In this document: piece by piece, positions 42,044 through 42,389 of the stretch
Position numbering within the stretch: position 1 is the stretch's first letter
Layout: every line of letters begins with the position of its first letter
NCBI RefSeq assembly: GCF_036507355.1
Contig: NZ_AP027877.1
From: Escherichia coli
Lineage (GTDB): Bacteria; Pseudomonadota; Gammaproteobacteria; Enterobacterales; Enterobacteriaceae
Length of the DNA: 64,000 bases
Direction: 5' to 3' (one strand)
Notes under the pieces: model-generated
The model's input: only the letters and a program-made list of their open reading frames with translations
What the model was told of the DNA's origin: nothing
The model's database searches: none
Program-made: the position numbers and the translations under genes

Positions 42044-42389
42044 TCTTTTCTGTCAAGTTATCTGTTTGTTAAGTCAAGCAATCTATTTGCAACCCCGCCA
42101 TAACGATCATCCTGTTACGGAATATTACATTGCAACATTTACGCGCAAAAAATAATCCGCATTCTTATTGCGGATTAGTTTTTTCTTAGCTGATAGCACA
42201 ATTTTCATACTATTTTTTGGCATTCTGGATGTCTGAAAGAGGATTTTGTGCCAGGTTGATAAAGTTTCCATCAGAAACAAAATTTCCGTTTAGTTAATTT
42301 AAATATAAGGAAATCATATAAATAGGTAAAAATTGCTGTAAATATCATCACGCCTCTATGGAAATATGACGGTGTTCACAAAGTTCCTT

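Follow-up and report, generated by a model that had tools for sequence, protein, structure and literature searches.

The perfect inverted repeat between asnS and ompF in this Escherichia coli genome is, in a reading that we hold with middling confidence, a lineage-specific and probably incidental palindrome that would act as a weak two-way backstop terminator in the allele studied here and has no selected role. It is not a conserved or selected element, and it bounds no known transcript. The hairpin itself is of little weight: at most it adds to the tally of weak terminator-like hairpins that lack annotation. It illustrates that the well-formed terminator anatomy of a single genome does not count as evidence of function if relatives and the organism's own population drop it. 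The evidence comes from folding and shuffling tests, alignment with relatives, allele counts within E. coli and published maps of RNA ends. Throughout, "the window" denotes the whole 64,000-nucleotide stretch of DNA that was analysed.

Anatomy and position of the hairpin

In the window a spacer of 600 bp separates the end of asnS (42001) from the start of ompF (42603), and both genes are on the + strand. The hairpin (42153-42177) pairs TAATCCGCA with TGCGGATTA in a perfect stem of 9 bp around a loop of 7 nt. The original prediction, made from the letters of the sequence, had described a perfect hairpin with an A-run 5' and a T-run 3'; this was confirmed, with a stem one base pair longer than stated. 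Coordinates also bore out its placement about 110 bp past the asnS terminator (110 bp, measured from the terminator at 42014-42037). The features are as follows, with a strand given where one applies.

42014-42044, + strand: asnS intrinsic terminator, a 10-bp GC-rich stem plus T7; genuine
42147-42152: A6 run, the U-tract for - strand transcription; AAAAAC in K-12
42153-42161: left arm TAATCCGCA, the variable half of the hairpin
42162-42168: loop TTCTTAT, 7 nt
42169-42177: right arm TGCGGATTA, the conserved half of the hairpin
42178: G between the right arm and the T-run
42179-42184: T6 run, the U-tract for + strand transcription; E. coli-specific

As RNA, the U-tract reads GUUUUUU on the + strand and UUUUUU on the - strand (GUUUUU on the - strand in K-12), and the - strand U-tract directly adjoins the stem. 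The A6 and T6 tracts lie 32 bp apart, or about three helical turns. The spacer is 98.4% identical to that of K-12, and a 121-bp segment that includes the hairpin is 100% identical in the O145 strain RM9872. The window's OmpF (42603-43676) has 357 aa versus 362 aa in K-12, indicating a different ompF allele.

Terminator anatomy and folding strength

A consensus scan classed the hairpin as terminator-like on both strands. RNA folding in a 51-nt context gave -14.7 kcal/mol on the + strand and -15.6 kcal/mol on the - strand (z = -3.6 and -3.4), and the predicted terminator look on either strand therefore holds both ways as a matter of anatomy. Chance occurrence was assessed by counting perfect hairpins (stem of 9 bp or more, loop of 3-8 nt) in the real sequence and in dinucleotide shuffles. 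The 64-kb window contains perfect stems of at least 9 bp at 11 places (20 nested hits) versus 1.8 hits in shuffles, and nearly all of the window's other perfect stems resemble gene-end terminators. Shuffles of the 600-bp spacer produced any such hairpin in 3.1% of cases, and one with both A-run and T-run flanks in 0 of 5,000. Thus, the stem with its two runs is not a chance pattern. The hairpin has a single copy in the window, allowing up to 3 mismatches, and it has a median of one place per E. coli genome; because it is single-copy in both, a REP/BIME-like repeat was ruled out.

The fold is modest in strength. Taken alone, the stem-loop reaches -11.6 kcal/mol (+) and -10.7 kcal/mol (-) compared with -14 to -22 kcal/mol for the window's other perfect hairpins, and it is the weakest perfect hairpin within the 64-kb window. 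Four of its nine pairs are G-C, and the stem base beside the U-tract is AU-rich. A d'Aubenton-Carafa-type score, computed with our own implementation using ViennaRNA energies (threshold d > 0), was -19.6 (+) and +1.7 (-) for the hairpin versus +37 for the asnS terminator. The hairpin is thus about 6 kcal/mol weaker than the asnS terminator, with a sub-threshold or borderline score. It shares with canonical intrinsic terminators a stem-loop followed by a U-tract, and its stem and loop are of the usual sizes (5-14 bp and 3-8 nt); unlike them, it lacks conservation and a mapped 3' end and does not stand where a gene ends. We infer that it would cause partial termination at best. It should not be filed as an established terminator, as it matches that class in two anatomical criteria only and is at most a weak intrinsic bidirectional terminator.

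On the reading that we favour, a polymerase crossing the window's allele in either direction would encounter a weak hairpin and then a U-tract. On the + strand the hairpin would presumably serve as a low-efficiency backstop for residual read-through past the strong asnS terminator, and on the - strand as a low-efficiency stop for the few weak starts in the ompF upstream region.

Bidirectional terminators of E. coli, as described from SEnd-seq work, are said to be symmetric hairpins with an A-tract on one side and a U-tract on the other, and are reportedly located between convergent, well-expressed genes. The hairpin resembles them in being a perfect palindrome between an A-run and a T-run that can be read in both orientations. 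Here, however, asnS and ompF point the same way and very little opposite-strand transcription reaches the hairpin: convergent transcription at the hairpin was not found in Cappable-seq data, in which - strand starts upstream of it score only 2.0-2.7.

Conservation among relatives

AsnS-encoding loci were taken from one genome per species, and the window was aligned with 12 other Enterobacteriaceae that have a spacer of about 600 bp (E. albertii, cryptic Escherichia, two Citrobacter and eight others). The hairpin was absent from all 12, and the asnS terminator was kept in all. The homologous segment of the 12 relatives folded at 0 to -5.5 kcal/mol on the + strand and -1.0 to -8.7 kcal/mol on the - strand; folding of the asnS terminator ranged from -16.4 to -19.2 kcal/mol in 13 of 13 sequences. 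The left arm differs as follows.

Left arm, window (E. coli): TAATCCGCA
Left arm, E. albertii: CAACCCACA
Left arm, cryptic Escherichia: CAACCTTAA
Left arm, Citrobacter: TAATCAGCA, opposite TGTGGATTA

The conserved blocks of the 12-species alignment are GCACAAAAAA, TTATTGCG(G) and TAGCAC, and the left arm is not among them. Most Enterobacteriaceae keep GCACAAAAAA, even those that lack the hairpin, and several other genera retain TTATTGCG. The right-arm segment TTATTGCGGATTAG is identical in E. albertii and cryptic Escherichia and reads TTATTGTGGATTAG in Citrobacter. A T-run is found in E. coli only, its site being GTAATTTC in E. albertii and GCATTTTC in Citrobacter. That E. coli has both the T-run and the perfect stem while its sister lineages have neither could be a sign that termination was recently selected. 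Watson-Crick pairing is kept at 7 of 9 positions in Citrobacter and 6 of 9 in E. albertii, so some palindromic character is older than E. coli. When E. coli alleles and relatives were aligned together, 0 pairs were altered on both sides, and pairing was no better than in shuffles.

The distal 350 bp or so of the ompF upstream region (42044-42390), comprising the OmpR site F4, the hairpin and an IHF block, is confined to Enterobacteriaceae. In Yersinia, Pectobacterium, Erwinia, Serratia, Edwardsiella and Photorhabdus the distal block is missing and the asnS terminator almost directly abuts the OmpR sites F1-F3. Its absence from Yersinia is consistent with the published lack of F4 there.

Variation within E. 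coli

Among 13 sampled E. coli genomes, changes were seen in the left arm alone. Allele counts were then obtained by searching 5,426 complete E. coli genomes for exact 30-mers.

Left arm TAATCCGCA: 1,950 genomes (36%), perfect stem
Left arm TAACCCGCA: 2,038 genomes (38%), C.A mismatch in + strand RNA, G.U in - strand RNA
Left arm TAATCTGCA: 1,038 genomes (19%), G.U in + strand RNA, A.C mismatch in - strand RNA
Loop, right arm and T-run, 30-mer 42161-42190: exact in 5,292 of 5,426 genomes (97.5%)

The polymorphism is one-sided, with three common alleles in the left arm and near invariance in the adjoining 30 nt. The changes in the D7/O157 allele and in E. albertii leave G.U on the - strand and C.A on the + strand, and we considered that pairing might be kept on the - strand only. 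This idea was dropped because the third allele, TAATCTGCA (1,038 genomes), shows the opposite pattern. The E. coli alleles do not consistently preserve the hairpin on either strand. Conservation had been put forward as a check on the original prediction, and the hairpin did not hold up: it is lost in all 12 relatives, and 36% of E. coli genomes have the perfect stem.

Setting in the ompF control region

The ompF -10 element, AAAGAT, lies at 42482-42487 and places the ompF transcription start near 42494. Reading of the sequence places OmpR site F1 at 42394-42413. Huang, Schieberl and Igo reportedly found, in 1994, that the F4 footprint spans -380 to -350. According to PMC3050692, F4 binds OmpR-P weakly, is located 260 bp upstream of F1-F3 and exerts its repression through looping. 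These positions yield one further feature.

42113-42143: inferred OmpR F4 site (TGTTACGGAATATTACATTGCAACATTTAC), from the F1 position, the distance in PMC3050692 and the reported footprint

Tandem OmpR-like units, TGTTACGGAA-TATTACATTG-CAACATTTAC, occupy 42113-42142, in agreement with the reported F4 footprint. Relative to the ompF transcription start the hairpin spans -341 to -317, which puts it inside the loop that joins F4 to F1-F3, past inferred F4 in the direction of ompF and before the IHF block. Accordingly, the original prediction's placement of the hairpin upstream of the distal ompF regulatory region is not correct, as the hairpin is inside that region with F4 on its asnS side. That the hairpin might itself be F4 was also considered and rejected, since it adjoins inferred F4 (42113-42143), as set by the reported footprint, with no overlap. 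Compared with the distal region as a whole, the hairpin belongs to its ~350-bp Enterobacteriaceae-only block, inside the repression loop, but, unlike the rest of the block, it has not been conserved as a palindrome. We know of no published site at the hairpin positions. Further toward ompF, 42255-42268 (TTGATAAAGTT; TCGATAAAGTT in K-12) resembles the high-affinity H-NS nucleation motif, tCGATAAATT.

This setting raises the question of a role for the segment as DNA, RNA folding being irrelevant. The right arm, the A-tract and the TAGCAC block would then be candidate protein-binding or bending sites, either as part of the F4-IHF-F1/F3 repression loop or as the upstream region (-38 to -84) of a - strand promoter with its start at 42115 (see below), and the left arm would be free spacer that is complementary by accident in some lineages. 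Such a role fits the retention of TTATTGCG(G), GCACAAAAAA and TAGCAC across genera while the left arm drifts, as well as the exact right half in 97.5% of E. coli. The position of the hairpin within DNA that must loop from F4 to F1-F3, and the spacing of the A6 and T6 tracts by about three helical turns, point the same way. Nonetheless, we consider it improbable. We recognised no known binding motif in the segment, a dimeric factor should constrain both half-sites whereas the left half is polymorphic and divergent and the right conserved, and 97.5% over 30 nt is near ordinary within-species intergenic conservation.

Mapped RNA ends and an antisense RNA

The spacer carries no RefSeq annotation in K-12 or in other genomes, and no Rfam family scored above threshold on the spacer. 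At a permissive E-value Rfam returned sub-threshold terminator-like matches only, such as STnc240 at 22.9 bits against a gathering threshold of 55, and these were rejected. Mapped 3' ends were taken from the curated K-12 Term-seq list of Adams et al. (2021), which covers LB at OD 0.4, LB at OD 2.0 and M63. Among the dominant ends in this list, none falls in the spacer on either strand under the three conditions, and the same data contain no Rho termination region there. The TERMITe supplementary tables yielded no match. A Term-seq 3' end had been suggested as a further check on the hairpin, and no dominant end lies at it on either strand in K-12. This is weak evidence, since the list is restricted to 882-1,175 dominant ends per condition, in which minor ends are invisible and the asnS terminator is missing too.

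Transcription starts were drawn from Cappable-seq data (Ettwiller et al. 2016), with K-12 + strand starts converted to the window's - strand. They fall at 42495, 42464, 42436, 42184, 42115, 42098 and 42065. With 42495 set aside, those that precede the hairpin score 2.0-2.7 (relative read score), near the detection threshold. The start at 42495 has a relative read score of 22.9 and no plausible -10 element. As it is a single nucleotide away from the ompF start, which is on the opposite strand, we treated it as probably a strand artefact of the very abundant ompF mRNA and not a promoter.

The only strong - strand start in the spacer is 42115 (relative read score 74.5; U00096.2 986694(+)). It is an A located 7 nt downstream of a TAATAT -10 element (42127-42122), a sequence checked in K-12. 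The one Term-seq 3' end in the vicinity, NC_000913.3 987644(+), corresponds to window position 41942 (-) and follows a GTACGTG/CACGTAC hairpin plus GUUUUG. Together these ends define an additional feature.

41942-42115, - strand: unannotated RNA of about 174 nt, from the Cappable-seq start and the Term-seq end

This RNA runs antisense to the asnS terminator plus the final ~60 nt of asnS. In the spacer from ompF to asnS, Stead et al. (2011) described a transcript of the opposite strand, candidate 62, which equals C0240 of Tjaden et al. (2002) and was called a 'putative small ORF'. The ~174-nt RNA is probably C0240/candidate 62. The statement in the original prediction that no RNA is annotated here stands as far as annotation goes, although the opposite-strand C0240/candidate 62 is found in the literature. 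A 10-13-aa ORF at the 5' end of the antisense RNA was rejected as its ATG is missing in E. albertii.

The core promoter of the 42115 start (-10 and spacer) lies inside inferred OmpR F4, and OmpR-P bound at F4 would be expected to occlude it. This setting is of more use than the hairpin itself: the distal control region of ompF is textbook material, yet a strong unannotated opposite-strand promoter sits within its OmpR F4 site. Counted from the 42115 start, the hairpin covers -38 to -62 of this promoter. Since the start is 38 bp beyond the hairpin, the hairpin precedes the ~174-nt RNA and does not bound it. The proposal that the hairpin may bound a short transcript is not supported by this arrangement, in which the strong - strand start (42115) is beyond the hairpin and the end is at 41942.

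Possible selection for insulation

Alternatively, the hairpin might have been selected as an insulator: a further bidirectional terminator that stops asnS read-through short of the ompF promoter and IHF region and prevents upstream antisense transcription from entering F4 and asnS. Its anatomy on both strands, far beyond chance, would suit such a role, as would the co-occurrence of T-run and perfect stem in E. coli only. The hairpin also stands 30 bp before a strong - strand promoter, which is the classic terminator-then-promoter layout. Against this, the hairpin is lost in relatives with zero compensatory changes, and 57% of E. coli genomes carry an allele mismatched on one strand or the other. 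Its score is sub-threshold and it has no mapped 3' end among the dominant ends listed. Moreover, the asnS terminator ahead of it is already strong, and with F4 on the asnS side the hairpin cannot shield F4 from asnS read-through. We therefore think selection for insulation unlikely, and the insulation of ompF from asnS read-through that had been proposed is left unsupported by the lack of conservation, the lack of a mapped end and the unprotected position of F4.

Candidate transcripts and ORFs on the ompF side of the hairpin

That the hairpin forms the 3' end of a short - strand transcript from the ompF upstream region, either a small RNA or the mRNA of a 25-aa ORF (42348-42271), is very improbable: the published opposite-strand 'putative small ORF' RNA, an ORF upstream of the hairpin that is open in three Escherichia species and a - strand U-tract directly abutting the stem speak for it, but the sole strong - start (42115) is downstream of the hairpin and pairs with the 3' end at 41942, starts upstream are near the detection threshold with none at 42342->42313 or 42330->42302, the ORF's conserved block coincides with inferred IHF-site DNA, and no dominant Term-seq 3' end falls at 42147.

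The ORF in question encodes a 25-26-aa hydrophobic peptide on the - strand (MIFTAIFTYLYDFLIFKLTKRKFCF, 42271-42351) and has GAGG 4 nt before its ATG. It is open in E. coli, E. albertii and cryptic Escherichia. Its best-conserved part is the inferred IHF-site block (42302-42331); what is conserved may therefore be the DNA. Three other candidates in this area were rejected. Promoter-like sites at 42342->42313 and 42330->42302 suggested a ~150-nt - strand RNA ending at the hairpin, and Cappable-seq has no start there. A - strand 51-aa ORF with a TTG start (42280-42125) crosses the hairpin and continues, which is inconsistent with termination at that point. A + strand 22-aa ORF (42168-42236) is open in Escherichia only, and its changes are mostly non-synonymous.

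Very unlikely, in our estimate, is a model in which the hairpin forms the upstream limit of an antisense unit controlled by OmpR at F4, shielding the 42115 promoter from transcription that leaves the ompF control region, with the three alleles tuning the crossing of the F4/IHF loop by strain. If true, it would tie the osmoregulation of porins to an antisense RNA at the 3' end of asnS.

IS200 insertions next to the hairpin

IS200C has inserted twice directly after the T-run (42184-42188), in GF60 and in 366_BP0076, which are unrelated strains with independent insertions. The two sites are 3 nt apart and the elements share one orientation, in which tnpA lies downstream of the hairpin. The GF60 insertion lacks a target duplication and leaves an intact ompF; strain 366_BP0076 has no ompF, and its IS is followed by aspC. 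Terminator-like sequences are reported to be enriched immediately upstream of IS200/IS605 elements (bioRxiv 10.1101/2025.07.22.666184), and the hairpin-adjacent insertions fit that enrichment. The layout in the two strains, with IS200C right behind the T-run, is the same as that of IS200/IS605-associated terminators. There is, however, no IS in the window or in more than 99% of genomes, and the hairpin is a target or neighbour and not part of the IS. The hairpin also marks a recurrent IS200 insertion point, where clinical and food isolates can have their ompF control region removed or displaced.
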